A stretch of DNA of 64,000 nucleotides from a marine bacterium B5-7 (lineage in GTDB: Bacteria > Pseudomonadota > Gammaproteobacteria > Arenicellales > CAJQKF01). Shown in pieces: positions 27,061-48,938 of the stretch; within the stretch, counting starts at the first letter, position 1; each line of letters starts with the position of its first letter. Made by a program: the position numbers and the translations under genes. The notes under the pieces are model-generated. The model worked only from the letters and a program-made list of their open reading frames with translations. It was not told the DNA's origin and ran no database searches. The stretch is from NCBI GenBank assembly GCA_021604525.1, contig BQJD01000003.1:12242-76241 (forward strand). The letters are read 5' to 3'.

Positions 27061-27087
27061 TGACGCGTATTTGCTAATTCGTGTCGC
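27061..27087 (+). promoter_or_regulatory. candidate GlxA-family regulator box A
   Basis: TGACGC-N15-TGTCGC, 21-bp period, 73 bp upstream of mttB1; 18/27 identical to 48789-48815. Confidence 0.55.
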
Positions 27088-27159
27088 CAATACGCCACGT
27101 CTTAATGGGGCAGCGGGCAAACTTTGATCTTTCAATGTACGTAATCGTGGGGTACCCGC

Positions 27160-28764
27160 ATGGGACATGAAAGTTCGAGTACTGTGAAGAAACGACCAGG
27201 TGGTCGTAGTGCCAGGCATGAATTGCGCAGTCGACAACTGCCGCAGGATGAACAGCCTGTGCGGCCGGGGTTGCCTGGCGGTGGACGCTATCACCCACTG
27301 ACCGATACAGATGTTGTCCGAATTCACAATGCCGCTCTTGATGCTTTGGAAAATATCGGCATGGCCAATTCCATTCCCTCATGCATTGACTTACTCACTG
27401 GCGCAGGCGCACGCCTTGCTGATAATGGTCGCATCCTGTTTCCCCGTTCATTGGTGGAAGATGTTATTGCCAATTCTGCGCATGAGATCACCCTGTATGC
27501 ACGAAACCCGGAACAACATGTTCATGCAGGTGATAACCGTGTGTACTTTGGTACGGCCGGCGCTGCAGTACATATGGTGGATGCGGTTAGTGGGATGTAT
27601 CGGGAATCAACACTGAAAGATTTATATGATGCGGGTCGCATCGTCGATCGCCTCGACAATATTCATTTCTTCCAACGGTGCATGGTCGCGCGTGATGTCC
27701 CGGATCCGCGAGAGATGGATCTTAACACCTGCTATGCCTCGATCAGCGCGACAAGCAAGCACGTCGGTACGTCGTTTGTCGATCCGGAACATGCTGAAGA
27801 AGCGCTCAGGATGTTGCATCTCCTGGCGGGGAGCGAAGCACAGTGGCGGGCACAACCCTTTGTCAGTTGTTCCTGCTGTTTTGTAGTACCACCGTATCGC
27901 TGGGCAGAGGACGCCTGTCGGGTACTCGAGACAGTCGTTCGTGGGGGGATGCCGATCCTGCTATTGGCTGCAGGGCAGGCAGGTGCAACCAGTCCGGCGT
28001 CATTGGCCGGGGCGGTGGTTCAGGAAGTCGCTGAAGTTTTGGCAGGACTCGTATATGTTCACGCAATCAAACCGGGTCATCCTGCAATATTCGGGACCTG
28101 GCCGTTTATATCCGACCTTAGAACGGGCGCCATGAGTGGCGGAAGCGGCGAACAGGCGGTGCTAATGGCGGCCTGTGGTCAAATGGGTCGTTTTTATAAC
28201 CTGCCGACCGGAATTGCTGCCGGCATGGCGGATTCAAAGGTGCCTGATACGCAGTCGGGATTTGAGAAAGGCTATACCGATGTACTGGCGGCTCACAGCG
28301 GGGCAAACCTGATTTATGAATCGGCTGGAATGCAGGCGAGTTTACTCGGCATGTGTCACGAATCGTTGGTTATCGATAACGACATGCTGGGAGCAATCAA
28401 TCGAACCGTGCGTGGCATTGAAGTCGATGACGAGTCGTTATCGCTTGAGAGTATGCGCAATGTCTGTCTGGAGGGGCCAGAGCATTATCTCGGGCATCCG
28501 CAAACGCTGTCATTGATGCAGAAAGATTACATCTACCCCGATGTCAGTGATCGGCTCAGCCCAAATGAATGGGCGGAGCAGGGCAGACTGACGATTGTGG
28601 ATCGTGCCCGGATACGTGTGAGTGAAATACTGGATAACCACTTTCCGGCGCATATCGACCCTGCGGTGGACCGAAAGATACGTGAGAATTTCCCGATAAA
28701 ATTGCCCGTTGAATCCATGCGACCCGCATCTGATACGATCGCCTCATCTGTCATTGAAAAATGA
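27160..28764 (+). CDS. MttB-family (non-pyrrolysine) methyltransferase, paralog 1
   Basis: RVYFGTAGAA, AGQAGATSPASLAGAVVQ, KPGHPAIFG, DLRTGA, DSKVPDTQSGFEK, GANLIYESAG; no in-frame TAG. Confidence 0.9.
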   Translation: MGHESSSTVKKRPGGRSARHELRSRQLPQDEQPVRPGLPGGGRYHPLTDTDVVRIHNAALDALENIGMANSIPSCIDLLTGAGARLADNGRILFPRSLVEDVIANSAHEITLYARNPEQHVHAGDNRVYFGTAGAAVHMVDAVSGMYRESTLKDLYDAGRIVDRLDNIHFFQRCMVARDVPDPREMDLNTCYASISATSKHVGTSFVDPEHAEEALRMLHLLAGSEAQWRAQPFVSCSCCFVVPPYRWAEDACRVLETVVRGGMPILLLAAGQAGATSPASLAGAVVQEVAEVLAGLVYVHAIKPGHPAIFGTWPFISDLRTGAMSGGSGEQAVLMAACGQMGRFYNLPTGIAAGMADSKVPDTQSGFEKGYTDVLAAHSGANLIYESAGMQASLLGMCHESLVIDNDMLGAINRTVRGIEVDDESLSLESMRNVCLEGPEHYLGHPQTLSLMQKDYIYPDVSDRLSPNEWAEQGRLTIVDRARIRVSEILDNHFPAHIDPAVDRKIRENFPIKLPVESMRPASDTIASSVIEK

Positions 28765-28785
28765 CTTGAACCTATTTAAAAATGG

Positions 28786-29742
28786 CTACTGACTCTCGTC
28801 CAGGCCGATAAATGTGCGCATGGCGGGTAACGCTGATGCGCCATCGCGCGTGGTAACTCCTTTGAGCCATGACTCGAGAATCTTCGGCTGCTGCCTCATC
28901 CAGGCAATGGCTGCAACCAATGGCTGCGCCTTGAGATCGAGGATGGCAGTCATGACTTCGTTAATCATCGGCAGGCTGAACTCAAGGTTGCCGAATAACA
29001 GGGCAAGATTCGGGCAGTTTTGTGCGAAGTTCGATCCGAGTCCGGTATAGGCATCGGCTCCACCAAACGAAGGTCCGAACACGTCATCTCCTCCGTCGAG
29101 ATAATAGATGTCGAATCGGACATTCATGGGATGTGGTTCGAAGGCCAGGAACACCATGGGTTTACCCGTCTGATTAGCTTCGGCAATTCTTTGCACAAGA
29201 TCGGCTTCGGATGATTCGACGAGTTTGAACTGCGCGAGGTGAAATTTGTTTTCGTCGATCATTTTTTGAATGAGAAAATTTCCGTCAGAACCCGGCTCGA
29301 CTCCATAAATCCTGTACGATAACGCCTCTTGCTGTTGGCTGATGTTGCTAAAGTTTTCTATGCCAAGGGTATGGCCATGACTGTTAACAGCCAGGGTGTA
29401 TTTCGTACCATGCAGATTTTGACGGACCAATTCCAGCGAGTTGTCAATAATATAAGGTCGTAGCGATGCACCCATGGTCGGTACCAGGATGTCCAGGGAT
29501 ATATCCAGATCCTGGTTTTTAATGCTTGCAAAAATGGTTGGAGGTGAAAGTACCTGGTGACTCGTCTCATAACCGAGTCCGCGTAGAAGAGCGGTTGCGA
29601 TTGCCAGTGATGCACCGGCATCCAGCCAGCCGACAGTGCCGAACCGTACCCTCTCGCAGCGATCTGTATCCTGGGCATGGACCGGCAATATCGTAATCAT
29701 CAGTACGTATGCCAGTAGTACTATCGAAGCAAATGCTTTCAT
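28786..29742 (-). CDS. quaternary amine ABC substrate-binding protein, ChoX-like
   Basis: signal peptide; VGWLD, KYTLAV, YGVEPGSDGN, EPHPMN, YLDGGDDVFGP. Confidence 0.88.
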   Translation of the reverse strand: MKAFASIVLLAYVLMITILPVHAQDTDRCERVRFGTVGWLDAGASLAIATALLRGLGYETSHQVLSPPTIFASIKNQDLDISLDILVPTMGASLRPYIIDNSLELVRQNLHGTKYTLAVNSHGHTLGIENFSNISQQQEALSYRIYGVEPGSDGNFLIQKMIDENKFHLAQFKLVESSEADLVQRIAEANQTGKPMVFLAFEPHPMNVRFDIYYLDGGDDVFGPSFGGADAYTGLGSNFAQNCPNLALLFGNLEFSLPMINEVMTAILDLKAQPLVAAIAWMRQQPKILESWLKGVTTRDGASALPAMRTFIGLDESQ

Positions 29743-29771
29743 TTGTCAGAGTACGATGTGGTTCACGCCAG

Positions 29772-30479
29772 TTACAGAAAATCGCGAAGTCGAGTTGCAT
29801 CGCTGATGATACAGTCTGCCAGCGGCTCAAGTTCTTCGATGCCGTGGGCACCGCTCAACACGCCGACCACAAGGCCGGCACCGCCCACGCGTCCCATGGC
29901 AAGATCGTGAGGACTATCGCCGATAACAACAACATCTTCAGGATTAATCATCCCGTGGCGGCAAAATGCATCGAGCATACCTGTCGATGGTTTGGCTCCA
30001 AATCCACTGTCGGCGCCAGCAATAAAGGTTGTATGCTGATTGATATCCAGTAACTCGGCGGTGGCACGCGCGGTTCGTTCCGCATCATTCGTGGCGATAC
30101 CAAGGAGATAACCTTGCGAGCTTAAGTAATTGAATAAGCTATTTATACCGTCGAACGGTACGGGCGATGCACCGGCATGATCGTGAAACAGGTTCAATAC
30201 CAGATTATCAAAATCCACGCGATCCATAACCGGTGCGATTGCATACCAGAGATCAAGAATTTCATCGTTACCTGCCGCCGCCAACACAGCATCGGTTTGC
30301 CATGACTGGTTGGACTCGTTCCAGCCGCCCTGGTGCATCAGGGTCAAGGCGATATCAGGATCGTTTGCCAGTTCGGCTATTTTTTTGGCCGCCGCATGAT
30401 AGGCTGGTAGCCAGGTCGCATTAAAATCGATCAAGGTGCCATCCTTGTCGAACAAGACGCCACCGAGTCTCATGGTCAC
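29772..30479 (-). CDS. HAD-family hydrolase/phosphatase
   Basis: LFDKDGTLID, IATND, KP..GM, IGDS..D; GTGA overlap with the upstream gene. Confidence 0.9.
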   Translation of the reverse strand: MTMRLGGVLFDKDGTLIDFNATWLPAYHAAAKKIAELANDPDIALTLMHQGGWNESNQSWQTDAVLAAAGNDEILDLWYAIAPVMDRVDFDNLVLNLFHDHAGASPVPFDGINSLFNYLSSQGYLLGIATNDAERTARATAELLDINQHTTFIAGADSGFGAKPSTGMLDAFCRHGMINPEDVVVIGDSPHDLAMGRVGGAGLVVGVLSGAHGIEELEPLADCIISDATRLRDFL

Positions 30480-31648
30480 AAGACTTTAAGAAGATCGAGA
30501 TGGTTTAACATGTCACCGCTCTGCCGGTACTTATCAAACCACTGATCGATCAATTCAATATCATTCGGGGCCGCTGATACGCCATTGGCTATACGATCAT
30601 CGAGTACCGCCTCCACCGCCAACGCGACGGTGCCGGAAACCAGTCTGCCCATGGCACTTGATTCCTTGTTGCCGACTGCATCGATGGCATAAGCCTGGTG
30701 CCATACCGGCACATCATCACGCTGCGCCTGAAGTTCAACGCTTAACACCACCCGGTCCGGTTCGTCATCGGAGTAAGCGTATTGTTGCCAGAGAGTTTTA
30801 CTCATTTCCTTCAGTGTGTTTTCACCGGATGGTCCTTCAAGCTGTTCAATCGTATTGAAAATATTTTTCCACGCATTGGCCCAACCTTGTAATCGAAGTG
30901 TGCCGCGCACGAATTCGTTTACCTGCCAGTCGGGTTCGAAATGATAGTCCTTCATGAAGGGCAGCGAGTCACGGTTAGGATATGCCTCGAAAGTTTCCTG
31001 GCCATGACCGAGATGGACATTATGCTCGACAATGTCATGCCAGGGGCGTTGCGTAATGTATTCCGCACCCTCTCGAATACTCCGTGAAGGTGATTTCAAT
31101 GCTTTCAGGACACCCAGTGGTGACCAGCTGAATTTGTATCGAAAGTCGTTGGCAACGGCGGGAAATCCACCACAGTATGACCTGAATGACAGAATATTAT
31201 CGTCGGCGTACGCTGGATCGTTGCGATAGGCATTTACAAGCTTATGCGCCATCAGGTGATCGATTCCAGGGTCGAGTCCCACCTCGTTAACAAGACACAG
31301 GCCTTTATCCGATGCATCACTGTTGAGGGCACGCATCTCATCTGTCAGGTATGAGCTCGAGACAAAATGAGCATTGCGTTCGATACAGACCTTCGCCAGT
31401 GGTACGTGCCAATCGCCCGGTAACATCGATACCACGACATCTCCCGGTGCAAGCTCGCTTTCCAGTGACTCCTGACTGAATACGCGTGCTTTGGTGCTGG
31501 AATCGACATTACCAATCGCATCTTTTGCTTTTTGAAGTGTCCGATTCCAGACGATCAGGGGTCTATCCGTTTGGGCCAGGTATCTGATTCCGGGAACTGA
31601 TGACAGTCCTGCTCCAATCCAGTGGATGACTGATTGTCTTTGATTCAT
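30476..31648 (-). CDS. saccharopine dehydrogenase (Lys9-like / Glu-forming type)
   Basis: IHWIGAGLSS, VVVSMLP, HFVSSSY, EVGLDPGIDH, FRSYCGG, YKFSWSP.GVL, AYPNRDS, RGTLR. Confidence 0.88.
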   Translation of the reverse strand: MNQRQSVIHWIGAGLSSVPGIRYLAQTDRPLIVWNRTLQKAKDAIGNVDSSTKARVFSQESLESELAPGDVVVSMLPGDWHVPLAKVCIERNAHFVSSSYLTDEMRALNSDASDKGLCLVNEVGLDPGIDHLMAHKLVNAYRNDPAYADDNILSFRSYCGGFPAVANDFRYKFSWSPLGVLKALKSPSRSIREGAEYITQRPWHDIVEHNVHLGHGQETFEAYPNRDSLPFMKDYHFEPDWQVNEFVRGTLRLQGWANAWKNIFNTIEQLEGPSGENTLKEMSKTLWQQYAYSDDEPDRVVLSVELQAQRDDVPVWHQAYAIDAVGNKESSAMGRLVSGTVALAVEAVLDDRIANGVSAAPNDIELIDQWFDKYRQSGDMLNHLDLLKVL

Positions 31649-31984
31649 GATAATTACCGGATAGCTAAATGTTTTTCGTTGTAGTGCAAGATGCCAATAC
31701 ATTACCAATCCTCAAAGGAATAAGGTATTGATCCATCTTTTTAAAAAGTTCAATGTCCTTCCAAAGATGATTTAATCAACCCGGCCCAGAGATTAACTCA
31801 TTTACTGCGGAAGTCGATACGAGATGGACGTGTACCAGTTGCTCATGTCCGATCGCAGGCAAATCCATTAACTGCTATCGAGGGGGTGAGTGCGGTAATT
31901 CAGATAGCCGTCGTACGCTCACCACACAAGAAGCAGTTTTGTCATACTTGTCTGATAGATATTGATGATCGCCTCATGGCGAAG

Positions 31985-34117
31985 TCAGTGCATTGGCGAT
32001 GAGGGTTGATTATCTGTGGGATCAATAGGTGCCGCGTAATCGTCCGCATGGGCATCGCCAAGCGAGATGATTGGATCCATGTCATCGAATACCGATTGCG
32101 GTAGATGACACAGCACGCTATGGCCAGTTGCCAACTCACGCATGGGCGGTAATTCGCGTTCACATAAATCACCTTCCACCTGTGACTTTCGTGGACAGCG
32201 TGTCTGGAACGGACAGCCGGGTGGTGGATACATGGCAGAGGGAATATCCCCCTCCAATACAACATGTTTCTTCTTGACCGACGTATCGGCTATTGGCACT
32301 GCCGATAATAACGCCTCGGTATAGGGATGATACGGTGGCGAAAATACCTGGTCGGTGGAGCCTTGTTCGACAACGTATCCAAGGTACATTACAACAATCC
32401 GATCGGACAAATACCGAACCACAGACATGTCGTGACTGATAAACAGCATGGTGGTTCGCGAATCTCGCTGAATATCCATCAGCAACTCGGTCACTGCGGC
32501 TTGTACCGACACGTCCAATGCCGACACCGGTTCGTCGGCGACGACGACACGAGGATGACCCGCGAAGGCGCGAGCAATACCGATACGCTGTTTTTGACCG
32601 CCGGATAATTGTCGCGGTTTACGCTTCTCAAATTCCCGCGGCAGTTTGACCAGGTCGAGCAACTCAAGCATTCGCTGACGTCGTTCCTCGTTGTTATTGC
32701 CCATGCCGAACTTTTCCAGCACGCGAATGATTTGCCCGCCAATGGTGTGGCTTGGGTTCAGCGTATCGAAGGGGTTCTGAAAGACCATCTGCACCGAGCT
32801 GACCGTGTTCGTATCACGCTCGTGGATGATGACCGAGCCAATTTCCTTGTCGTTTAAAAACACTTCGCCAGATGTCGCTGTTTCAAGACCCAGGAGTATC
32901 TTGGCAAGGGTCGATTTGCCGCAGCCGGATTCACCGACAATTGCCACTGTCTCGGCTTCACGGGCCTCAAGCGTGACGGATTCGTTGGCCTTGACGACGC
33001 GTTTTTGAATCCCGCCAAAAATGGCATTGGCTGCGACCTGATAATGCTTTTTAAGGTTGTTAACCCTGAGTACGATCTCTCCGGCTGTCACTGATTCCTG
33101 TTTTTTGATATTGGCCGGTGGCGCGTTCCAGTCGATTTCGCGCGACCGAACACAGCGGATTTCATGGTCGGGTTCTTCGGCTACCGGTTGCATCGGCAAA
33201 TCGCCTTTGTCACAAACACCGCCAACGAAATAGTCGCAGCGTGGGCCGAAGTTGCAGCCGGGCGGTCGCAGGTGGGGAAGGGGAAACTGACCGGGTATGG
33301 CAATCAGCGGTCGGGCATTTTTATCAGCACCGGGCAAAGGTATGGAACGGAACAAACCTTGAGTATAAGGGTGACGCATACGGTCAAAAACTTCTTTAAC
33401 CGTGCCGGATTCAACCGCCTCACCCGAATACATAACCGTGATCCGATCGCAGGTTTCGAGAATCAATCCCAGGTTATGGGATATAAACAGCATGGATGTG
33501 CCGAACTCTTTCCCCAGATCCTTGACCAAATCGACAATTCCTGCTTCAACAGTTACATCCAAAGCAGTGGTTGGCTCATCCAGCAATAACAAGGCGGGCT
33601 TTGAGAGCAATGCCATGGCTATGACGATTCGCTGTTGTTGTCCCCCGGATAACTGATGCGGATAGGAGTTCGCAATTCGATCCGGATCAGGCAGGCGCAC
33701 AGCGTCAAGCAGGTCGATGGAACGTTTGCTTGCATCTGTTTCAGACAAACCTTCATGAATCATGGTGACTTCATTGAGCTGCTTGATAACCTTCATGGCC
33801 GGATTGAGGCTGGCCATGGGCTCCTGGTAAATCATGGATATCTGAGAACCGCGAATTTTGCGCAACTCTTCATCAGACATATCGACCATATCGCGGCCGC
33901 GGAATTTGATCGACCCGCCGACGATACGACCGTTCTTGCCAAGATCGCGCATGATCCCGAGTGCAACAGTGGACTTGCCACAACCCGACTCACCAACCAG
34001 CCCCATGGCTTCTCCGGGCATGACCTCGCAGGAGAAATCCATGACCGCCGGGATCTCACCAATTCGTGTAAAAAATGAGATACACAAGTCGTCAATTTTT
34101 AAAATGGGTTCGCTCAT
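31985..34117 (-). CDS. Dpp/Opp-type ABC ATPase, two fused domains
   Basis: two GESGCGKS Walker A motifs, two LSGGQ signatures, two HPYT motifs, two Cys-rich C-terminal motifs. Confidence 0.95.
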   Translation of the reverse strand: MSEPILKIDDLCISFFTRIGEIPAVMDFSCEVMPGEAMGLVGESGCGKSTVALGIMRDLGKNGRIVGGSIKFRGRDMVDMSDEELRKIRGSQISMIYQEPMASLNPAMKVIKQLNEVTMIHEGLSETDASKRSIDLLDAVRLPDPDRIANSYPHQLSGGQQQRIVIAMALLSKPALLLLDEPTTALDVTVEAGIVDLVKDLGKEFGTSMLFISHNLGLILETCDRITVMYSGEAVESGTVKEVFDRMRHPYTQGLFRSIPLPGADKNARPLIAIPGQFPLPHLRPPGCNFGPRCDYFVGGVCDKGDLPMQPVAEEPDHEIRCVRSREIDWNAPPANIKKQESVTAGEIVLRVNNLKKHYQVAANAIFGGIQKRVVKANESVTLEAREAETVAIVGESGCGKSTLAKILLGLETATSGEVFLNDKEIGSVIIHERDTNTVSSVQMVFQNPFDTLNPSHTIGGQIIRVLEKFGMGNNNEERRQRMLELLDLVKLPREFEKRKPRQLSGGQKQRIGIARAFAGHPRVVVADEPVSALDVSVQAAVTELLMDIQRDSRTTMLFISHDMSVVRYLSDRIVVMYLGYVVEQGSTDQVFSPPYHPYTEALLSAVPIADTSVKKKHVVLEGDIPSAMYPPPGCPFQTRCPRKSQVEGDLCERELPPMRELATGHSVLCHLPQSVFDDMDPIISLGDAHADDYAAPIDPTDNQPSSPMH

Positions 34118-34128
34118 AAGGGATACCT

Positions 34129-35331
34129 TTAGTCTCTTAACGACTCCTCGCGCAGCCCGTCAGCCAGGAGATTGAGGCCCAGAACCAGGGTCATTAACGC
34201 AAGCGCCGGGATTAACGACAAGTGAATCGAAGAGGCTACGCGTACAAATGGCCGACCGTGGTTGATCATCGAACCCCAGTCCGGACTTTCCGGTGAAAGC
34301 CCAAGACCGAAGAAGCCCAGCGTGCCGAGCAGTATGGTGGTATAGCCAATGCGTAAACAGCCGTCGACTATTAGTGGGCCACGTGCATTGGGTAGAATCT
34401 CCCACAGCATGATGTACCAGGGTCGTTCACCACGGGTTTGCGCCGCCGCCACATAATCGCGTGTACCGATATCGAGCGTCAGACCGCGTACGATTCGAAA
34501 TACACCGGGGCTCGATCCGAGTACTACCGCTGCAAATACATTCAACTCGTTTGGTTCAAGATTGAACGGTGCAAAGTCGGCGCCGAAGACCAGACCGGCG
34601 TAAATCCACAAACCAATAATGACTGTAGCGCCGATATACATTGCCAGTTTTTTAGGCGCATGGTCAAATCGGGTTAACCATAGCGTGCATAGAAAGATGA
34701 TCGGAAAAAGAAAGAAGAATCCGGCGAGGCCGATGGGTATTGACCAGGGTAGGGAGAAAAGTCCGAGATCATAGTAGACCGGTTGGCGAATCTCCGGCGT
34801 CACCAATAGATAAAAAAGCAGGATGACCGGAAATGCCAGAATCAGGTTGGCCAGGAACGACAGTACGGTGTCGATGCGCCCACCGAAATAACCTGCTGGC
34901 AAACCGAGGGTAATCCCCACCATGTAGGCAACAGCAGTCGCCGCCGGTGCAATGATCAATACAATCTGGCTGCCCCAGACGACGCGTGAGAATATATCGC
35001 GGGCGAGGTTATCGGCACCCCATATCATGATGATGTTGTTACCGGCATCAATAATACCGGGACCGCCCTTTTTAATGCCCGGCGTGAAACTTGCGGCATC
35101 GGAAGGCATGACAGCGATGATGTCAGCGAAAATCGCGGTAAAGATCCAGAATAATACGATGATAAGACCGGTCATGCCGACCGGCGAATCAAACAGCCGC
35201 CCGAACAAGCCGAGTTTTGATCGTGTAATCCAGCCACCGATCAGAACTACTGCAATTGCAGACCATGTTGGCCAGAACCGAATGATTGATGTGGTAAAGA
35301 TCTCGAATGTCGAGATGTATTCGTTTTCCAA
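34129..35331 (-). CDS. Dpp-type ABC permease (DppC-like, with internal insertion)
   Basis: GADNLARDIFSRV, YVAAAQTRGE, EILPNARGPL, GLSPESPDWG. Confidence 0.92.
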   Translation of the reverse strand: MENEYISTFEIFTTSIIRFWPTWSAIAVVLIGGWITRSKLGLFGRLFDSPVGMTGLIIVLFWIFTAIFADIIAVMPSDAASFTPGIKKGGPGIIDAGNNIIMIWGADNLARDIFSRVVWGSQIVLIIAPAATAVAYMVGITLGLPAGYFGGRIDTVLSFLANLILAFPVILLFYLLVTPEIRQPVYYDLGLFSLPWSIPIGLAGFFFLFPIIFLCTLWLTRFDHAPKKLAMYIGATVIIGLWIYAGLVFGADFAPFNLEPNELNVFAAVVLGSSPGVFRIVRGLTLDIGTRDYVAAAQTRGERPWYIMLWEILPNARGPLIVDGCLRIGYTTILLGTLGFFGLGLSPESPDWGSMINHGRPFVRVASSIHLSLIPALALMTLVLGLNLLADGLREESLRD

Positions 35332-35350
35332 TGCGTGATCCCCCGTTAAC

Positions 35351-36286: not shown

Positions 36287-36362
36287 CTGATTTCCCCTGT
36301 CGTACTATGGTTTTTATGCAAATCGAAGTGAATGACGATTCGCTTAAAACAAGTGCCTGTTC

Positions 36363-36389
36363 AGGTAGCCCCACACGGGGGCCACCTGT
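36363..36389 (-). terminator. stem-loop between the SBP and permease genes
   Basis: minus-strand CAGGUGGCCCC-CGUGU-GGGGCUACCUG, 11-bp stem with one G-U, 14 nt after the SBP stop; typical of an mRNA-stabilising element in ABC operons. Confidence 0.6.
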
Positions 36390-36402
36390 TGGAGACTTAC
36401 TG

Positions 36403-38561: not shown

Positions 38562-38680
38562 ATGCAAACCCTGTTGATAGGTTGCGGGCTATGGGGCACC
38601 AAGATTCTCCGCAACCTGTGGTTGCCAGGTTGCGAAGTTGATGTGGTTGATACATCTCCAGCCCGACGATTCGTAGCAGA
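38562..38680 (+). pseudogene. N-terminal remnant of a Gfo/Idh/MocA-type oxidoreductase
   Basis: MQTLLIGCGLWGTKILRNL...EVDVVDTSPARR = Rossmann beta-alpha-beta (GxGxWG) only; no SD; runs into the 3' end of the opposite-strand gene. Confidence 0.5.
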
Positions 38681-38691
38681 TTGGTTCAGAT

Positions 38692-39522: not shown

Positions 39523-39836
39523 AGTGGTTTAAATAATTAGTTGTAAGTCGACCTATCCCTTAAGTCTGGTGCTTGACTCAAGTACGTCACCTGATATGTT
39601 CACATACGTGAATTTGACCGGCACGCGATTTCAAAGGAGTAGAACCCAGACTGGCATTCATCAATTCATCGTTAAAACTGGAATCAGGATTGCTTGTCCC
39701 TCGATAATATTCAAGCACCGCGAGATTGTATCAAGTCACCCCGTTGCTGATTATTGACGTGCCAACCAATCCTGTATGTCGAAATCGCTGATCAATTATA
39801 TTAACCAGTCACACAACGAACCTCCAGGAGATCTCA

Positions 39837-42800
39837 ATGAGCCTTGAAACGCACCACCCGGGAGATCCAGAGGATTGTGTATCCACAACGTTGCGTGAAC
39901 AAATTCGCGCGGCATACCTACCTGATGAAGCGCAAATTGTTGCAAAGAGGGCGGTCGAGGCGGATCTTGATATAGACGCCCGTCAACGGATTTCATCACA
40001 TGCTGCGCAACTGATCGAAGCAGTACGTGAGCGTTCCGATCCTGGCCTGATGGAGGTTTTTTTAGCCGAATATGGTCTGTCAACACGCGAAGGTGTGTCA
40101 TTGATGTGCCTGGCCGAGGCTTTGCTACGTGTGCCCGATGCCGAGACCATCGATGCCCTTATCGACGACAAGATAGCCCCTTCGGATTGGGGGCAACATC
40201 TCGGCCATTCGAGTTCATCTTTGGTTAATGCATCAACCTGGGCACTGATGCTGACCGGAAAAGTGCTGTCCGACAACGACGGCAGTTTGATCGGTACATT
40301 GCGATCGGCAGTGCGGCGTCTGGGCGAGCCGGTTATTCGGACCGCTATCGGACAGGCGATGAAAGAACTGGGTCGGCAGTTTGTTCTTGGGCGATCGATC
40401 GAAGAAGCAATGGAACGCGCCAGGGGAATGGAATCACGCGACTATGTTTATTCCTACGACATGCTGGGTGAAGCGGCGCGTACCGAGGCTGACGCCCGCC
40501 GGTATCATTTATCCTATTCTGATGCTATTACCGCGCTTGCCCCTGCCTGTCGATCAAGCGATATCCAGCGGAATCCCGGGATCTCGGTAAAGCTGTCCGC
40601 ACTGCATCCACGATATGAAGAATCCCAACGCGAACGGGTTATGGAAATCCTGGTCGCCAGGACCCGCTCTCTCGCACTGATTGCGAGATCGGCCGGAATG
40701 GGCTTCAACATCGATGCCGAGGAAGCAGATCGACTCGACTTGTCCCTCGACGTCATCGAGATGGTGTTATCGGACCCGGCATTGAAGGGTTGGCATGGTT
40801 TTGGTGTGGTCGTTCAGGCCTACGGTCCGAGAGCCTCACTGGTCCTCGACTGGCTGTATGCGTTGGCCGAACGACTGGATCGACGAATCATGGTGCGTCT
40901 GGTCAAGGGAGCTTACTGGGACACGGAAATCAAGCGTGCGCAAGTACTCGGACTCGATGGCTTTCCTGTATTTACCCGAAAAGTCAGTACCGATGTTTCC
41001 TATATTGCCTGCGCGCGTAAATTGCTTTCAATGACTGATCGCATCTATCCGCAATTTGCTACGCATAATGCGCATACCATGGCGGCGGTTCTTGAGATGG
41101 CATCGGATAATGATGCGTACGAATTCCAGCGACTACACGGCATGGGGGAGGCGCTCCACGACATCGTGAAGACTTCCAACAATGCTCGCTGTCGTATTTA
41201 TGCGCCGGTGGGCGCGCATCGTGATCTGCTTGCCTATCTGGTTCGGAGATTACTCGAGAATGGCGCCAACAGTTCTTTTGTGAATCAGATAGTGGACGAA
41301 AGCGTACCGGCTGAAGAGATCGCTCGAGACCCGTTCGATGTAGCGATAAATTCAGGTGCGGCAATCGTCAATCCGTCAATTACGCATCCCTTTAACCTGT
41401 TCGGTGAGTCGCGGCGAAATTCAAAAGGTTACGACCTGACTTATCGATCTCATCTCGATCAAATCGAAATCGAACGTGAAACGTTTAATAACACCATCTG
41501 GCAGGCCGGTCCCATGATAGCCTCGTCGGTAACCGGTGATCGGCGAGTCAAGGTGGTAAACCCGGCCGATAATTCGCAAACGGTTGGTGAGGTTATCGAA
41601 ACAAGCGATGCGGATGTTGATGCGGCTCTCGATAATGCGATTGATAGCGTGGCCAGATGGAGCGGTTTGTCTGCTTGCGAGCGTGCCAACCGGCTTCGCC
41701 TGACAGCGGATTTGTTTGAGGAGAATGCCGTCGAATTGTTTGCTCTCGCCTCGCGCGAGGCTGGCAAAATTATGCTTGATTGTGTCGGTGAAGTACGTGA
41801 GGCGGTCGATTTTCTGAGATTCTATGCGAGTGAGGCTGAACGGCTCGGGGATGGTGCTACTTCAAGGGGCGTGTTTGTATGTATCTCACCATGGAATTTC
41901 CCCCTGGCAATATTCACCGGACAGGTTGCCGCCGGGTTGGCGGCGGGTAATGCAGTTATAGCCAAACCTGCCGAACAAACGCCACTGATTGCAGCTCGTG
42001 CAGTCGCATTGATGCATGAGGCAGGCGTGCCGGTCGATGTTCTCCAGTTACTTCCGGGTGATGGCGCCACGGTGGGTGCGCGCCTTGCCGGCGATGCGCG
42101 AATCCAGGGGCTTTGTTTCACAGGATCTACTGCTACGGCGCAATTGATAAATCGTTCCATGGCGGCAAAGGTAACGCCGGATGCACCGTTGATTGCAGAG
42201 ACAGGTGGTCTCAATGCAATGATCATTGATTCCACGGCGCTACCCGAACAGGCGGTTCGCGACGTCGTTGTTTCAGCCTTTCAAAGCGCTGGCCAGCGTT
42301 GCTCAGCACTTCGCGTCTTGTATGTTCAAAAGGATGTCGAAGCCCGGTTCATGGAAATGTTGTTCGGTGCCATGGATGAGTTGGTAATCGGTGACCCATG
42401 GCAACTTGCCACGGACGTTGGGCCGGTTATCGATGCCGAATCGCGCCAACGAATCAATCAGCATGTGGATTCCTATGCAGCCCGCGGACGATTGATGAAG
42501 CGGCTCGATGCACCGACTGATGGCTTGTTCGTCGGTCCGGCTGTCCTCAAGGTGGACGGCATTGCAGAACTCGAAGAGGAAATATTCGGACCGGTGCTGC
42601 ACGTGGCGAGTTTTGCCGCCGACGATATAGACAAGGTGGTGGACGACATAAATCAGAGTGGCTATGGACTGACATTCGGACTTCACACTCGCATTGACGA
42701 CCGTGTTCAACAGGTGGTGGATCGAATTAGGGTCGGCAATGTTTATGTTAATCGTAACCAGATCGGCGCTATTGTTGGCTCCCAGCCATTTGGTGGTGAG

Positions 42801-43409
42801 GGTCTTTCCGGTACCGGGCCCAAGGCAGGCGGTCCACACTACGTTGAACGTTTCATGCGCCATTTAATGCCGCAATATGAGAATGTCAGCGGCCCACCCG
42901 CACTGTTGGATGAAGTGCGGGCAGCATTGGCCACCTTTAACAATACCGATGACATCCTGGTCGAAGTCACTGATCTGCCGGGGCCTACGGGTGAATCGAA
43001 TCGTTTATCAGCCTACGGACGTGGAGTCGTTCTATGTCTTGGACCTGGCGTTGAGGTGGCGTTTACACAGGCGAATGAGGCAATGGCAGCAGGCTGCAAG
43101 GCGGTCGTGGTGGCTCCTGGTGCAAGTGACTCGGTGGATATTGCAAACGAGAGTTTGAAAGTGTGCGATGGAATTCTGGGTCCGCAGGAGGTAGCCGGTC
43201 TTGATGGTATCGATGCAGTGATTCTATGGGGGAGGGAGCAGGATATGCGCGAGATGCGAATGGCCCTGGCATCGAGAGGTGGAGCGCTTATTCCGCTGAT
43301 AGCCGAATCAGGTGTACGCTCCCGCTACTTGATCGAGCGTCACTTGTGCATCGACACCACTGCAGCCGGAGGCAATGCTTCATTGTTGGCGGTTGCCGGC
43401 GATGTTTGA
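39837..43409 (+). CDS. putA: bifunctional proline dehydrogenase / P5C dehydrogenase PutA (no N-terminal RHH)
   Basis: MCLAEALLRVPD, SYDMLGE, IDAEE, RLVKGAYWD.EIK, FATHNAHT, YLVRRLLENGAN, ISPWNFP, ETGG, SAGQRCSA, GPKAGGP. Confidence 0.97.
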   Translation: MSLETHHPGDPEDCVSTTLREQIRAAYLPDEAQIVAKRAVEADLDIDARQRISSHAAQLIEAVRERSDPGLMEVFLAEYGLSTREGVSLMCLAEALLRVPDAETIDALIDDKIAPSDWGQHLGHSSSSLVNASTWALMLTGKVLSDNDGSLIGTLRSAVRRLGEPVIRTAIGQAMKELGRQFVLGRSIEEAMERARGMESRDYVYSYDMLGEAARTEADARRYHLSYSDAITALAPACRSSDIQRNPGISVKLSALHPRYEESQRERVMEILVARTRSLALIARSAGMGFNIDAEEADRLDLSLDVIEMVLSDPALKGWHGFGVVVQAYGPRASLVLDWLYALAERLDRRIMVRLVKGAYWDTEIKRAQVLGLDGFPVFTRKVSTDVSYIACARKLLSMTDRIYPQFATHNAHTMAAVLEMASDNDAYEFQRLHGMGEALHDIVKTSNNARCRIYAPVGAHRDLLAYLVRRLLENGANSSFVNQIVDESVPAEEIARDPFDVAINSGAAIVNPSITHPFNLFGESRRNSKGYDLTYRSHLDQIEIERETFNNTIWQAGPMIASSVTGDRRVKVVNPADNSQTVGEVIETSDADVDAALDNAIDSVARWSGLSACERANRLRLTADLFEENAVELFALASREAGKIMLDCVGEVREAVDFLRFYASEAERLGDGATSRGVFVCISPWNFPLAIFTGQVAAGLAAGNAVIAKPAEQTPLIAARAVALMHEAGVPVDVLQLLPGDGATVGARLAGDARIQGLCFTGSTATAQLINRSMAAKVTPDAPLIAETGGLNAMIIDSTALPEQAVRDVVVSAFQSAGQRCSALRVLYVQKDVEARFMEMLFGAMDELVIGDPWQLATDVGPVIDAESRQRINQHVDSYAARGRLMKRLDAPTDGLFVGPAVLKVDGIAELEEEIFGPVLHVASFAADDIDKVVDDINQSGYGLTFGLHTRIDDRVQQVVDRIRVGNVYVNRNQIGAIVGSQPFGGEGLSGTGPKAGGPHYVERFMRHLMPQYENVSGPPALLDEVRAALATFNNTDDILVEVTDLPGPTGESNRLSAYGRGVVLCLGPGVEVAFTQANEAMAAGCKAVVVAPGASDSVDIANESLKVCDGILGPQEVAGLDGIDAVILWGREQDMREMRMALASRGGALIPLIAESGVRSRYLIERHLCIDTTAAGGNASLLAVAGDV

Positions 43410-44410
43410 TTCATCGCATCACAATTTATTGCATCACGCGATAACGATTCGCCAGGCCATATCGGTGAAGTCCACGGACTGAACGAAAAACGCCGGGCGA
43501 TATTCGCGTAACCCGCATACCAGGGTCCACCAACGACATTGCGTGATACCTCAGGTTGCTTATCTGACGATGTGCCTGAGAGCTGCCAGTAGACATCGGG
43601 AATGCGATACCAGGGCAGGGATGGATACCGATGGTGAACAACATGGTAGTTGTTGTTGAGAAATAACAGGCGCATGGCAGCACATCCTTCAACTATCGCG
43701 GTACGTGCTTCCGGATTGTTGTCATAGCGGTGTTCGACAAAGGAACGAATCAACAGAAGACTGGTTGCTGGCCATACGAATGCCAGCAGGTAAATATGAA
43801 TCGGCATAACAGCAATTTTCCAAAGCCAGCCGATAACCAGCAGCACTCCGATGAGATGAAGCGCGTTTTGCGTTAGAGCGTCAATAACGGACCGCGATGA
43901 TCCTGGCGTGCCGAACACCATTTCCTTGAATGTCACGTATGCTGTCAATAGCGGCCCGATGATCATACGTCCAGCAAACGTATTGTTTATAACGGACAGC
44001 AAACGATTAAACGTTGACATACGTTGCCAGCGTTCAGCCGTTACGTACCATGATTCCGGATCGACATCAGGACGTGTCAGTTCATTGCGATGATGAGCGC
44101 GATGGTTTTTCTCATAGTGTGATATCGGCAACCACAATAAGAGTGGCAATCCCACCAGGACGAGATTGAATCGACGGTTACAGGTTGGATGACCATGAAT
44201 CGCTTCATGTTGTAGTGAGCTGTAAAAGGCGAGGCATAGTCCACCTGCAATTGGCAGCAGATAGATCGGTATCGATTGCCACACAAGGGTTAGCGAAATC
44301 CAGCTAGCGAGGGTCGCGGCTATCATCAGACCGGTTAACCATTCGCCGGCAAATTGCCACGAATTGCTCTTGAGATTCGATAATGTCGGTGGTCGATAAG
44401 TTCGTTGCAT
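43340..44410 (-). CDS. fatty acid desaturase-like membrane di-iron enzyme (start uncertain 44410-44458)
   Basis: His boxes HEAIHGH, HRAHH, EH, NNNYHVVHH; several TM segments. Confidence 0.87.
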   Translation of the reverse strand: MQRTYRPPTLSNLKSNSWQFAGEWLTGLMIAATLASWISLTLVWQSIPIYLLPIAGGLCLAFYSSLQHEAIHGHPTCNRRFNLVLVGLPLLLWLPISHYEKNHRAHHRNELTRPDVDPESWYVTAERWQRMSTFNRLLSVINNTFAGRMIIGPLLTAYVTFKEMVFGTPGSSRSVIDALTQNALHLIGVLLVIGWLWKIAVMPIHIYLLAFVWPATSLLLIRSFVEHRYDNNPEARTAIVEGCAAMRLLFLNNNYHVVHHRYPSLPWYRIPDVYWQLSGTSSDKQPEVSRNVVGGPWYAGYANIARRFSFSPWTSPIWPGESLSRDAINCDAMNQTSPATANNEALPPAAVVSMHK

Positions 44411-44490
44411 ACAGTACATGTCCAAAATATTGAACGGACTATACGAACCGTTTTTCATGCTGGCGACGTTTTTTCCGTAAGCACAAACGC

Positions 44491-44520
44491 ACAATTGTTT
44501 ACTATAATCAACAATTGTTG
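44491..44520. promoter_or_regulatory. tandem palindromic operator flanking a -10 box in the desaturase/XRE spacer
   Basis: ACAATTGT at 44491-44498 and CAACAATTGTTG at 44509-44520 (20-bp period); TATAAT at 44503-44508. Confidence 0.55.
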
Positions 44521-44552
44521 TATAAATGAACAACTAGCGTTTAAATGAAACC

Positions 44553-45395
44553 ATGAACAAGAAATATCTGGTGACGGTATTCAGGCAACGTTTGCATGAA
44601 TCCATGACAATGCGTGAGATGAGTCAGTCGGCACTTGCCCGCCAGGCAGGTATCGATCGCTCGACCCTGTCGCAACTCCTTGCAGAAGATGAAGTCAGAA
44701 TGCCGCGGGCTGACACCGTGGCAGGAATCGCCAGCGTATTACAGGTATCCAGTGACTGGTTACTCGGCTTGACTGCGGATCGACGCTTCGGTGCTGAAAT
44801 TCTCAAACAATCGCTTGAAGTTGCGCCTCATGAGGCGAGTCCAGCGGATGCCAACCTGGCCCGTTGGTATGCCGAAGCAGCCGGGCTGAAAGTGCGTTAC
44901 GTGCCGACGAATATTCCAGACATATTCAAAACCGAAGAATTAATCGAGTACGAATATGGCAGCATAACTGAACGGCCCGTGGACCGGGCCATCGAGGAAT
45001 CACGGCAGCAATTGCGTTTTGGGCGGATGGTCGATAACGACATGGAAATCTGTATGTCGGTGCACGCTATAAACGATCTGTGTGCCGGACATTCTCTATG
45101 GAGTAACTTACCTGCACCTATCCGTCGTCGTCAGGTACAGCAGATAGTTAATATTGTCGAAGAATTGTATCCGCGTGTTCGTATTTACTTGTTCGATGGC
45201 CTCAAGCGTTATGCTGCGCCGTACACAATATTCGGCAACAAGCGGGCGGTGTTGTATCTCGGGCAGATGTTTTTTGCTTTCAACACCAGCGAATATGTCA
45301 GCATCCTGATCCGTCATTTCGATGATCTCATACGCAACACGGTGATCAATGCGCATGAGGCTGCTGATTATCTGCGTCAACTCGATGTTAAATGA
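44553..45395 (+). CDS. XRE-family HTH regulator with an uncharacterised C-terminal domain
   Basis: MSQSALARQAGIDRSTLSQLL ... SSDWLLGL. Confidence 0.85.
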   Translation: MNKKYLVTVFRQRLHESMTMREMSQSALARQAGIDRSTLSQLLAEDEVRMPRADTVAGIASVLQVSSDWLLGLTADRRFGAEILKQSLEVAPHEASPADANLARWYAEAAGLKVRYVPTNIPDIFKTEELIEYEYGSITERPVDRAIEESRQQLRFGRMVDNDMEICMSVHAINDLCAGHSLWSNLPAPIRRRQVQQIVNIVEELYPRVRIYLFDGLKRYAAPYTIFGNKRAVLYLGQMFFAFNTSEYVSILIRHFDDLIRNTVINAHEAADYLRQLDVK

Positions 45396-45546
45396 GATAA
45401 CGGTTGCCGGTAGTGATTAGATGAAATCAATATTTAAACGATTGAACAGTTATAATCAGCCGCGCCGATAAGTGGTCGTGACGCGCCCAAGTGCGCCGTG
45501 GCTTCGGCAAGTCGGCCGATTATTATCCCTGAAGTGGAGGTACTGA

Positions 45547-45885
<339 letters not shown>

Positions 45886-46059
45886 CCTGAATACGATCTG
45901 TTCATCTGTATTCCCGTTGGTCATTGAAATAAACCGTGTCGCGTTCTGCTCAATAGAGAATTAACTTCAAGCAAGACCGATTAATTTGTGAGTTCGTCGG
46001 TACAAGTAAGCTCCTTTACACAAAATAGGCCTCCACCAACACATCTATCTCGACAACTT

Positions 46060-46998
46060 ATGCTAGCCAGACGAATAACATCTATCGCGGGCGGGTTACT
46101 GGCTTTGTTTGCCAGTAATGTTTTCGCTGCCGCTTCCGATGCAGTCGATTTCTACCTCGCGGGTGATTATGACAGGGCGCGTAAGGAATGGTCTGAATTG
46201 GCTAATGGTGGCGATGTCCACGCCCGCTACAACCTGGGTATGTTGTATCTGGATGGGTTGGGCGTGCCTCGTCAGCCGACCCGGGCGATGGAGTTGATAA
46301 GTGAAGCCGCTGTTGCCGGTTATGCCCCTGCACAATACCGCTTTGCCATGATTAAACTGGACATGGATGCCGTTGCGGCGCTGGAAATGGCACGTTTCTG
46401 GCTCACCAATGCAGCGCGACAAGGCTATCCGCGAGCGGCATTGGAGCTGGGCAGAATTTATTTGGGCGTCTATGGTGGCGAGCAAGATCAAGTTCGTGCA
46501 TTGACATCATTAGACCAGGCAGCGTCGGCCGGTATTATCGATGCACAAGAGATGGTGGATTCCGTCAATGCCAGTTTGCCAGGCGGTCAGGATGACGATG
46601 AATTGGCTGTCGCGATAATAAAGGAAGGACGTGGCACTCTCGAACAACGTAAAGCGGTGTACGAGGGGCAAAAGGCATTCATCAAACAGGATTATGCGCG
46701 TGCCGTCGAGATCTGGGCGCCATTGGCAGAAGCCGGTGTTGCCCGTGCACAATACGGTATCGCATTCATGCTGGAATCAGGTTGGGGAGTAGTCCAGGAC
46801 TATCGCGAGGCAGCGTACTGGTACGCACGCGCAGCACAACAGGGTCATCGCAAAGCGCAGTTCAATCTTGGCATCATGTATCTTGAAGGCCGTGGCCTTG
46901 AGGCGAATCGAGGCATTGGACTTTACTGGGTGCAAACCGCTTCTGACCTTGGCGAACCACGGGCACTTGAATACATGACCGCGTTAAAAGATCACTAG
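46060..46998 (+). CDS. exported Sel1-repeat protein
   Basis: signal peptide MLARRITSIAGGLLALFASNVFA; repeats ARYNLGMLYLDGLGV, AQYGIAFMLESGWGV, AQFNLGIMYLEGRGL. Confidence 0.88.
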   Translation: MLARRITSIAGGLLALFASNVFAAASDAVDFYLAGDYDRARKEWSELANGGDVHARYNLGMLYLDGLGVPRQPTRAMELISEAAVAGYAPAQYRFAMIKLDMDAVAALEMARFWLTNAARQGYPRAALELGRIYLGVYGGEQDQVRALTSLDQAASAGIIDAQEMVDSVNASLPGGQDDDELAVAIIKEGRGTLEQRKAVYEGQKAFIKQDYARAVEIWAPLAEAGVARAQYGIAFMLESGWGVVQDYREAAYWYARAAQQGHRKAQFNLGIMYLEGRGLEANRGIGLYWVQTASDLGEPRALEYMTALKDH

Positions 46999-47044
46999 AA
47001 CCTGTCGGAAAACGGCTGCAACCTGCCAAGTTTGAGACAGGTTC
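46998..47044. repeat. REP-like palindromic element, copy 2
   Basis: GAACCTGTC ... GACAGGTTC terminal inverted arms around GGCTGCAACCTGCC; lies between convergent genes. Confidence 0.6.
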
Positions 47045-47132
47045 CAACCTACCCGAATATTTTATGGATGGACAATCGGCGGGCAGCGATAGTGTTTACC
47101 CGGCGCTACCTTGCATCAACTGCAGTTTGGCT

Positions 47133-48674
47133 TCAGTTGTTTGAATCCGGCAGCGATGCCTTGCGCTGTTCGATAAATGCCAGCAACGCCTCATCGATAC
47201 CCGGATCAATTGGCGGTGCCTGGTACTCGCGCAACATCTTTTTGTAGACCGCATTGGCGCGCGCGCTGGTGTCGAGACTGCCCTCGCTGCTCCACTGCTC
47301 GAAGCTGTTATTGTCGGTGACATTCGACCTGTAAAAAGCCTGTTCGAAGTTTGCCAGGGTATGGGCACATCCAAGAAAATGCTTACCCGGTCCCACTTCT
47401 CGCAACGCATCCATTGCCTGGCCGTTTTCCGATGTATCGATGCCACCAAGGAATACGCCAACCATCGCAGCCTGGTCGGCGTCCATGATGAATTTTTCAT
47501 AGCCCATAACCAGACCACCTTCCAGCCAGCCGGCGGTATGCAGCATGAAATTGACGCCTGCCATTGCCGCTGCCTGCATGGTATTCGCGGATTCGTAAGC
47601 GGCTTGGGCATCCGCAATTTTCGATCCGCACAGTCCGCCGCCGGAACGAAATGGGACACCTAGTCGTCGCGAAAGCGCGGCGCAGATATTCAGCACTAAT
47701 GACGGTTCCGGCGTGCCGAATGTCGGTGCGCCGGACTGCATGGAAATGGAGCTTGAGAATGTGCCGAAAACCACTGGTGCGCCGGGCTTGACCAATTGCA
47801 CGAAGCATATCCCCGCCAGCGCCTCGGCGAGTATCTGGGCACAGGTGCCAAGGGTGGTCACCGGTGACATGGCACCGGATAAGATAAACGGCGAAATCAC
47901 GGTTGCCTGATTATGTTTGGCGTAGACCCGTGCCGCACCGAGCATGGTGCTGTCAAATGTCATTGGTGAATTGGCGTTGATGAGATTAATCAATACGCAG
48001 TGCTGTTCGACGAATTCATCGCCAAAGACAAGCTTCGCCATCTGTACCGAATCCTCGGCTCTCTCCGGCGCTGTGACCGAACCCATGAAGGCCTTGTCGC
48101 TATAGCGGATATGGCTATAGACCATCTCAAGGTGACGCTTGGTCACCGGCAGGTCCACCGGCTCGCATAAGGTACCGCCATTGTGATGCAGACCAGGTGA
48201 CATGTAGGCGAGCTTGGCGAAGTTGCGAAAATCCTCGATATTTGCATAACGTCGGCCTTCGTCCTGATTGCGAATGAAGGGCGGTCCGTACGCCGGTACG
48301 AGTACCGTATTGTTGCCGCCTATTACAACATTTCTCTCAGGATTACGGGCGTACTGGATGAATTCGGCAGGCGCGCTGCGGGTAATGATTTCACGACACA
48401 TGCCCTTGGGGAACCGCACCCGGTCGCCGTCGATGTCACAGCCTTCGCGACGAAATAATTCAAGGGAATCAGGGTCGTCATGAAAATCGATCCCGATTTC
48501 GGCGAGAATAATCTCGGCGTTATGCTCGACAAGTTCGAGAACCTCCTCCGAGGCAATTTCATAAGTCGGCACCTGGCGCTTGATGTAGGGCGGGCTTACC
48601 GGTTTGGTTTGTTCCCGGGTGATACGCCTTGCATCGCGTCCGCCACCGCGGCGCCGTCCTGTATTCTCAGCCAT
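47133..48674 (-). CDS. MttB-family (non-pyrrolysine) methyltransferase, paralog 2
   Basis: RRRGGGRDARR N-terminus, VPAYGPPF, CEPVDLP, FMGSVT, INANSP, GAMSPVT, GAPTFGTPE, HTAGWLEGGL, YEKFIMD; no in-frame TAG. Confidence 0.92.
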   Translation of the reverse strand: MAENTGRRRGGGRDARRITREQTKPVSPPYIKRQVPTYEIASEEVLELVEHNAEIILAEIGIDFHDDPDSLELFRREGCDIDGDRVRFPKGMCREIITRSAPAEFIQYARNPERNVVIGGNNTVLVPAYGPPFIRNQDEGRRYANIEDFRNFAKLAYMSPGLHHNGGTLCEPVDLPVTKRHLEMVYSHIRYSDKAFMGSVTAPERAEDSVQMAKLVFGDEFVEQHCVLINLINANSPMTFDSTMLGAARVYAKHNQATVISPFILSGAMSPVTTLGTCAQILAEALAGICFVQLVKPGAPVVFGTFSSSISMQSGAPTFGTPEPSLVLNICAALSRRLGVPFRSGGGLCGSKIADAQAAYESANTMQAAAMAGVNFMLHTAGWLEGGLVMGYEKFIMDADQAAMVGVFLGGIDTSENGQAMDALREVGPGKHFLGCAHTLANFEQAFYRSNVTDNNSFEQWSSEGSLDTSARANAVYKKMLREYQAPPIDPGIDEALLAFIEQRKASLPDSNN

Positions 48675-48743
48675 TGTCGAAACCTCATTGTCGATTAATG
48701 CAGCGAATGATTCAGTATCAACCGGTTTGGTGCTGACTGTGCT

Positions 48744-48770
48744 GCGACACCGATAGTGTTGCCCGCGCCA
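48744..48770 (-). promoter_or_regulatory. candidate GlxA-family regulator box C (faces mttB2)
   Basis: minus strand TGGCGC-N15-TGTCGC, 21-bp period, ~70 bp upstream of the mttB2 start. Confidence 0.45.
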
Positions 48771-48788
48771 ACGGATGATATAAACCCT

Positions 48789-48815
48789 CGACGCAATTCA
48801 GATAATCCGAGTCGC
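48789..48815 (+). promoter_or_regulatory. candidate GlxA-family regulator box B (faces the GcvT-family gene)
   Basis: CGACGC-AATTCA-GATAATCCG-AGTCGC; 18/27 identical to box A. Confidence 0.5.
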
Positions 48816-48938
48816 GCCAGATTGCGGCGCCGATCTTTCTGACGAATACACTTCACGGTTGGGGTGCGAGGCGTTAAAGTCGCGTCTCCCGATTGAGAAA
48901 AACGTACCCATAATTGCATAAAGACTTCGAGGATCAGC

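Follow-up and report, generated by a model that had tools for sequence, protein, structure and literature searches.

Introduction

The ArgR protein of Pseudomonas aeruginosa controls arginine uptake and catabolism and recognizes the consensus TGTCGC-N8-AA-N5, repeated in tandem. The half-sites of another regulator, CdhR, each contain GGTCGC and form a direct repeat with a 15-bp spacer. GbdR, SouR, and ArgR have sites that closely resemble that of CdhR, and all four proteins are AraC regulators with a GATase-1-like domain (PMC5806209). We analyzed a 64,000-nucleotide stretch of DNA (the window) from the marine bacterium B5-7 (contig BQJD01000003.1, assembly GCA_021604525.1), in which three boxes of similar appearance, S1, S2, and S3, lie ahead of two genes of the MttB methyltransferase family, mttB1 and mttB2, and of a DAO-GcvT flavoprotein gene. 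Methyltransferases of the pyrrolysine-free MttB type abound among aerobes from marine and host-associated habitats; for most of them, to our knowledge, neither a substrate nor a mode of regulation has been assigned.

Here, we propose that S1–S3 are operators for AraC activators of the GATR subfamily, a prediction that the comparative evidence makes rather likely. S1 would serve a regulator encoded next to it, and we lean towards S2 and S3 serving a paralog encoded elsewhere in the genome.

Results

Three direct repeats face mttB1, mttB2, and a flavoprotein gene

A previous sequence-only reading of the window had described a box upstream of mttB1, mttB2, and the flavoprotein gene, each copy facing its downstream gene with half-sites 21 bp apart, and had counted 18 identical positions out of 27 between S1 and S2. 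The sequence confirmed the coordinates, strands, period, and orientation of all three boxes (Table 1), and a hand count gave the same identity. S1 lies 47 nt past the stop codon of a regulator gene (25998-27014) and 73 nt ahead of the mttB1 ATG (27160). S3 stands 70 nt ahead of the mttB2 start and S2 stands 124 nt ahead of the start of the DAO-GcvT gene. The half-sites are precisely 21 bp apart in each box, leaving a 15-bp spacer between the hexamers. They are direct repeats and not the arms of a hairpin, and an Rfam scan of the box-bearing intergenic regions found no RNA family. Each predicted site would be made of a distal (T/C)GRCGC and a proximal NGTCGC, and S2 and S3 would form a divergent pair driving mttB2 on one side and the DAO-GcvT and etfBA genes on the other.

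The 25998 protein carries a DJ-1/PfpI-like (GATase-1-like) N-terminal domain and two C-terminal AraC helix-turn-helix motifs, the domain pair of GATR proteins (Pfam). Its best NCBIfam match is GbdR (NF052371), with 353.8 bits against a cut-off of 480; judged by this score, it is a relative or paralog of GbdR and not a GbdR equivalog. The B5-7 genome encodes four GATR paralogs. S1–S3 show three traits of GATR operators: a GNCGC/GTCGC direct repeat, a 15-bp spacer, and a GATR gene in the same genome whose occurrence follows that of the site. The sequence-only reading had likened the box to a GlxA/GATR-type site, with ArgR-like TGTCGC half-sites at a 21-bp period, and this agrees with the published sites (PMC5806209).

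The box is conserved in orthologous promoters

We compared B5-7 (labeled G000 below; 4.41 Mb, 51.7% G+C, 14.7% non-coding) with uncultured Gammaproteobacteria of the order Arenicellales, including Candidatus Spongiihabitans, sponge symbionts of the Poriferihabitaceae, and Granulosicoccaceae. The upstream regions of mttB2 orthologs were taken from 29 other genomes of the order and aligned. In most of these genomes, the sequence (A/T)TGRCGC-N15-NGTCGC faces mttB2 and lies 61-74 nt (up to ~109 nt) before the start codon; altogether, the mttB2-facing box is present in ~22 of the 29 genomes, which belong to many families. A second, oppositely oriented box is found in many mttB2 upstream regions and points toward the divergent gene. 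In most relatives this partner is etfB itself, with the boxes in the shared intergenic region; in others it is a gene resembling dimethylglycine dehydrogenase. Such a divergent S2-type box was seen in at least 13 other genomes. Equivalents of S1 occupy the same place in G001, G002, G004, G026, G034, and G060 and in loci L101-L113. The mttB1-like paralogs in G005 and G006 have no box upstream, and in G007 none separates the only GATR gene from its MttB neighbor.

The spacing of the half-sites was analyzed by counting GNCGY/GTCGY pairs at periods of 16-27 bp in the 29 mttB2 and 17 mttB1 upstream regions. At the 21-bp period, the mttB2 regions held 17 forward and 13 reverse pairs and the mttB1 regions held 16 forward pairs. 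These 46 pairs compare with 0-1 pairs at each of the 11 other spacings and a background of ~0.04 per kb-strand. In ~60 orthologous sites, the columns G..CG and GTCG are invariant, and an A or AA is conserved ~8-9 nt after the distal hexamer (matrix columns 15-16). Most of the orthologous promoters that the sequence-only reading had pointed to as a test do carry the box, before both mttB1 and mttB2 and at the 21-bp period only.

A matrix built from other genomes recovers S1–S3

The sequence-only reading had also called for a matrix scan of the genome. We built a weight matrix from 30 mttB2-type sites, all from other genomes and none from G000, and ran it across the 8.8 million positions of G000; the 3485 gene-upstream regions were scanned separately, in gene orientation. 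Among all positions, S2 ranked first, S3 second, and S1 ninth, and the three boxes were the three best intergenic matches. They were also the top three of the 3485 gene-upstream regions, with S1 in third place. Because the training set held no mttB1 promoter, S1 is a truly independent match.

The scan yielded no further convincing site in G000, and matches of at least 8 bits were not enriched in non-coding DNA (141 of 1299, versus 14.7% non-coding sequence). The upstream regions of the other three MttB paralogs of G000 (contigs C1, C25, and C27) showed no strong box in the upstream scan. The next-best intergenic match (C18:28475-28504), before a large open reading frame resembling a glycosyltransferase/hydroxylase, is probably not a site. 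The fifth-best (G000:C28:18340-18369) is in fact an inverted repeat, GACGC-N17-GCGTC, and probably a site for another factor; it stands 180 bp before genes for the NuoE/F-like and alpha subunits of an NAD-dependent formate dehydrogenase.

Two clades of GATR regulators accompany the boxes

The GATR protein tree has two clades. Clade I (support 100/98) contains the 25998 protein, its 71-82% identical orthologs from the same family, and every regulator encoded directly upstream of an mttB1 ortholog. The order regulator, box, mttB1 recurs in at least 15 further genomes, usually with a DAO-GcvT gene next, and the mttB1 box was seen only in genomes with a clade I regulator. Judged from gene order, the regulator-box-mttB1 unit is conserved in several Arenicellales families, sponge symbionts included. 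Since clade I regulators sit beside mttB1 with the box in between, S1 very probably belongs to the 25998 protein, and this adjacency supports the part of the earlier reading that made this protein the binder of S1.

In L101-L113 (Arenicellales metagenome-assembled genomes, including Candidatus Spongiihabitans), the mttB1 ortholog is followed by a DAO-GcvT gene of its own, whose product is ~40% identical to the flavoprotein of the window. This arrangement points to a distinct operon for demethylation in two steps, governed by the clade I regulator. The sequence-only reading had tied both MttB paralogs and the flavoprotein into one pathway. The comparison does not support that claim: a private DAO-GcvT partner of mttB1 in other genomes suggests parallel pathways.

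Clade II groups the regulators found beside mttB2 orthologs in other families with the sole GATR protein of several genomes that have mttB2 boxes. It also includes a G000 paralog encoded on contig C1 (G000:C1:180813-181730). This paralog scores 444.6 bits against the GbdR model, near the cut-off of 480, which neither G000 regulator passes; the paralog on contig C17 scores 358.3 bits against the same model (NF052371). The mttB2 box occurs in genomes with any GATR protein and is absent from four genomes that have none. Within its own neighborhood (G000:C1:180655-184810; L093 4655-8811), the GbdR-like paralog is accompanied by a third MttB gene and a pyridoxal phosphate enzyme of Cys/Met metabolism. 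The 84-bp spacer ahead of this MttB gene contains a degenerate box, AGTCGA-N15-GGTCGC (L093 7148-7174).

We also built separate matrices for mttB1-type and mttB2-type sites and tested them by leave-one-out. The two matrices discriminate: S2 and S3 fit the mttB2 type better, by 10 and 17 bits, and S1 is ambiguous. The recognition helices of clades I and II are nearly identical, with three clade-specific substitutions (K/R, G/P, and R/C). As the helices are so similar, cross-binding is plausible, as for CdhR and GbdR.

Taken together, these results lead us to lean towards two paralogous regulators with overlapping specificity, in the manner of CdhR and GbdR, a model that we place somewhat above that of a single regulator. 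Boxes of the mttB2/flavoprotein type would predate clade I and go with the GbdR-like clade II paralog encoded on contig C1, outside the window. By analogy with the known systems, we presume that quaternary amines, or the products of their demethylation, act as inducers.

Alternative explanations

Several observations weigh against this reading, and we consider them here together with its rivals. The boxes might be chance resemblances, picked post hoc from GC-rich intergenic DNA and functionless. The bare pattern GNCGC-N16-GTCGC occurs 78 times in G000, versus 58-96 times at other spacings, and so is not enriched; 10 of the 78 copies are intergenic, in line with the non-coding fraction, and 3 of these 10 are S1–S3. 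A stricter 12-position pattern matches S1–S3 alone, but it was fitted to those very sites. Without genome-wide enrichment of this pattern, our case depends on the comparison with relatives and not on G000 alone. The chance rate, which the sequence-only reading had wished to see estimated, thus gives a divided answer: the bare pattern does not stand out in G000, whereas a matrix free of G000 sites brings exactly these three boxes to the top of all upstream regions. Position, orientation, and spacing are moreover conserved across families while the flanks diverge. We regard chance as scarcely credible and, as far as sequence computation can do so, as already refuted. Conserved operators of a protein outside the GATR subfamily would also explain the conservation, the likeness to ArgR, GbdR, and CdhR sites then being coincidental. 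Short GC-rich cores such as GTCGC are indeed not unique to one family. However, the half-site sequence, the direct-repeat geometry, and the exact 15-bp spacer all fit published GATR sites, many genomes have GATR genes adjoining the boxes, and the boxes come and go with GATR genes, although the four genomes that lack both belong to one genus and count as a single lineage. A non-GATR binder is therefore very improbable.

The more serious rival concerns the number of regulators. As the sequence-only reading had it, the 25998 protein alone would bind S1–S3 and co-activate mttB1, mttB2, and the flavoprotein and etf genes, which lie 22 kb apart. S1–S3 share their core and an A-T-Y-S-G stretch preceding the proximal half-site, and the recognition helices of the two clades hardly differ. 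The regulator and mttB2 belong to one conserved synteny block in G005. Both G005 and G006 keep a clade I regulator within the conserved block of mttB2, have no mttB1 ortholog, and have no other box nearby, an arrangement that speaks for action of clade I at the mttB2 box as well. The sub-motif evidence is itself less clear-cut than the leave-one-out test suggests: S1-type boxes of the same genus score equally well or better with the mttB2-type matrix, and the separation of the two types may partly stem from common descent of the sites rather than specificity. Against a single regulator, mttB2-type boxes occur in families without clade I, where the neighboring regulator, if any, belongs to clade II; the clade II paralog of G000 is closer to GbdR than the 25998 protein is (444.6 versus 353.8 bits); and the mttB2-type matrix gives S2 and S3 an advantage of 10-17 bits over the mttB1-type matrix. 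We thus consider control of all three boxes by the 25998 protein alone unlikely. The part of the earlier claim that concerns S1 is very probably right, and the part that concerns mttB2 and the flavoprotein gene does not fare as well, given the boxes in families that lack clade I. Two regulators with overlapping specificity remain our preferred reading.

Promoter geometry

An ungapped alignment of 16 mttB1-type promoters, anchored at the box end, reveals a -10-like hexamer of the conserved form RATACT, +32 to +37 past the box. Promoters orthologous to that of mttB2 have GATACT or TATCCT-like hexamers at +25 to +37. The candidate -10 hexamers of the three window promoters are given in Table 1. 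A scan for consensus sigma-70 promoters found nothing. With two half-sites exactly 21 bp (two helical turns) apart, two DNA-binding domains would contact the same face of the helix. The proximal half-site would end ~31 nt upstream of a weak -10 hexamer and hence near -44, just upstream of a poor -35 element. Transcription would then start near 27130, 48707 (minus strand), and 48859. This placement, as deduced from sequence conservation, and the negative sigma-70 scan would fit activator-dependent promoters. Where a -35 region is expected, 5-12 nt past the box that faces mttB2, a motif CAGTCAG(A/C) is conserved within the family (window 48725-48739, minus strand; L032-L035). Other families have GGCAGA, GAGCAGA, or similar sequences in its place.

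Genes of the window

MttB1 and MttB2 both match PF06253 over their full length. Their frames are open under translation table 11 and contain no in-frame amber codon, placing both proteins in the pyrrolysine-free MttB superfamily. MttB2 matches 4YYC with 741 bits and the glycine betaine methyltransferase 2QNE/9YCE with 437-439 bits. For MttB1, the best solved relative is 2QNE/9YCE, with only 219 bits. A Met of MttB1 aligns with the pyrrolysine position of the trimethylamine methyltransferase 7XCL. The Rfam element PYLIS_3 matches inside mttB1 (28225-28324, plus strand; 54.8 bits versus a gathering score of 38), though the frame has no amber codon. The match begins at the codon aligned with the 7XCL pyrrolysine and probably stems from conservation of the coding sequence, not from a functional element. 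The flavoprotein did not reach the cut-off of any NCBIfam equivalog. From their position, etfB and etfA are probably downstream targets of the S2 promoter.

Table 1. Predicted operators, candidate -10 hexamers, and associated genes of the window
Feature	Position	Strand	Description
S1 box, TGACGC-GTATTT-GCTAATTCG-TGTCGC	27061-27087	+	Direct repeat facing mttB1; from sequence
S2 box, CGACGC-AATTCA-GATAATCCG-AGTCGC	48789-48815	+	Facing DAO-GcvT gene and etfBA; from sequence
S3 box, TGGCGC-GGGCAA-CACTATCGG-TGTCGC	48744-48770	-	Facing mttB2; from sequence
GATR-type AraC regulator, clade I	25998-27014	+	PF01965, residues 48-186; PF12833/PF00165, residues 247-325
mttB1, pyrrolysine-free MttB-family methyltransferase	27160-28764	+	PF06253, E 4e-116
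mttB2, MttB-family methyltransferase, glycine-betaine type	47133-48674	-	PF06253, E 1.8e-222
DAO + FAO_M + GcvT flavoprotein, dimethylglycine or sarcosine dehydrogenase-like	48939-51452	+	PF01266, PF16350, PF01571, PF08669
etfB and etfA	51679-53384	+	PF01012, PF00766; downstream of flavoprotein gene
Putative -10 of mttB1 promoter, CAAACT	27118-27123	+	+31 to +36 after S1; predicted from sequence
Putative -10 of mttB2 promoter, GATACT	48714-48719	-	+25 to +30 after S3; predicted from sequence
Putative -10 of flavoprotein promoter, TACACT	48847-48852	+	+32 to +37 after S2; predicted from sequence

A conserved block in G005 (G005:C52; L091) consists of the regulator, OpuAC, HAD, PhnD-like, Sel1, mttB2, etfBA, and dapB genes. 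The same block in G000 (window 25998-54620) is broken by four insertions: mttB1; a saccharopine-dehydrogenase-like gene with an Opp-type ABC transporter; putA with a desaturase and an XRE gene; and the DAO-GcvT gene. Upstream of putA, the sequence-only reading had noted a near miss with 22-bp spacing (39755-39782). We rejected it as a site: it scores at most 3.4 bits with either matrix, the putA promoters of five relatives contain nothing resembling it, and no orthologous site uses a 22-bp period. In relatives (L127, L129, L130, and L131), a gene for an Lrp/AsnC-type regulator is the divergent neighbor of putA; in G000 (window 39523-39836), that gene is missing and putA faces a PhnD-like gene.

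Discussion

The mechanism, the site architecture, and the regulator family are already known from Pseudomonas and Burkholderia. What appears to be new, on the sequence evidence, is the set of predicted targets, namely MttB-family methyltransferase genes, a DAO-GcvT dehydrogenase gene, and ETF genes, together with the lineage. Full-text literature searches found no paper that links MttB genes mechanistically to GbdR-type regulators. We tentatively suggest that the clade I regulator, its box, and mttB1, mostly with a DAO-GcvT gene of its own, might form a self-contained module, conserved in Arenicellales both free-living and symbiotic with sponges, that senses and demethylates some quaternary amine distinct from glycine betaine and that is wired to a GbdR-like glycine-betaine module through overlapping operator specificity. 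If true, this would be a two-tier network like that of CdhR and GbdR, built on aerobic MttB enzymes. The three predicted operators by themselves already carry the regulatory scheme of GbdR and CdhR beyond Pseudomonas and Burkholderia, to the Arenicellales, sponge symbionts included, and to a different enzymology of betaine demethylation. The regulator/operator pair beside each MttB clade would also offer a handle: moved into a laboratory host as a reporter, it could serve in inducer screens, and the inducers would allow substrates to be inferred for the MttB paralogs of uncultured bacteria.

How do the boxes compare with the known operators? Like the ArgR consensus, they have a TGTCGC half-site that repeats at 21 bp and an A or AA ~8-9 nt after the distal hexamer; unlike the case of ArgR, no arginine genes carry the box here. 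The CdhR operator at caiX-cdhR of Pseudomonas aeruginosa likewise consists of two direct-repeat half-sites with a GTCGC core and a 15-bp spacer (Meadows and Wargo 2018, PMC5806209). CdhR, too, is a GATase-1-like AraC regulator encoded beside its target, a quaternary-amine catabolic operon, and its operator is also recognized by the paralog GbdR, much as we propose for the boxes of B5-7 (PMC5806209). The differences are also clear. The distal half-site is (T/C)GRCGC here and GGTCGC in the CdhR site; the boxes would lie near the promoter (~-70 to -44, as estimated from the candidate -10 hexamers), whereas the CdhR site lies >100 bp upstream; the gene at 25998 is co-directional with and upstream of its predicted target, whereas cdhR is divergent; and the target here encodes an MttB-family methyltransferase in place of the carnitine dehydrogenase genes of CdhR. 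GbdR, for which the CdhR paper cites Hampel et al. (2014), is a GATR protein that activates the catabolism of glycine betaine and of dimethylglycine in P. aeruginosa, and its site shares with the boxes an essential CG in the distal half-site (GCCGC for GbdR, GNCGC here) (via PMC5806209). Compared with the GbdR regulon as given there, which comprises gbcAB, dgcAB, sox, plcH, and others, the boxes of B5-7 stand before a different set of genes: MttB-type methyltransferases, a DAO-GcvT dehydrogenase, and etfBA.

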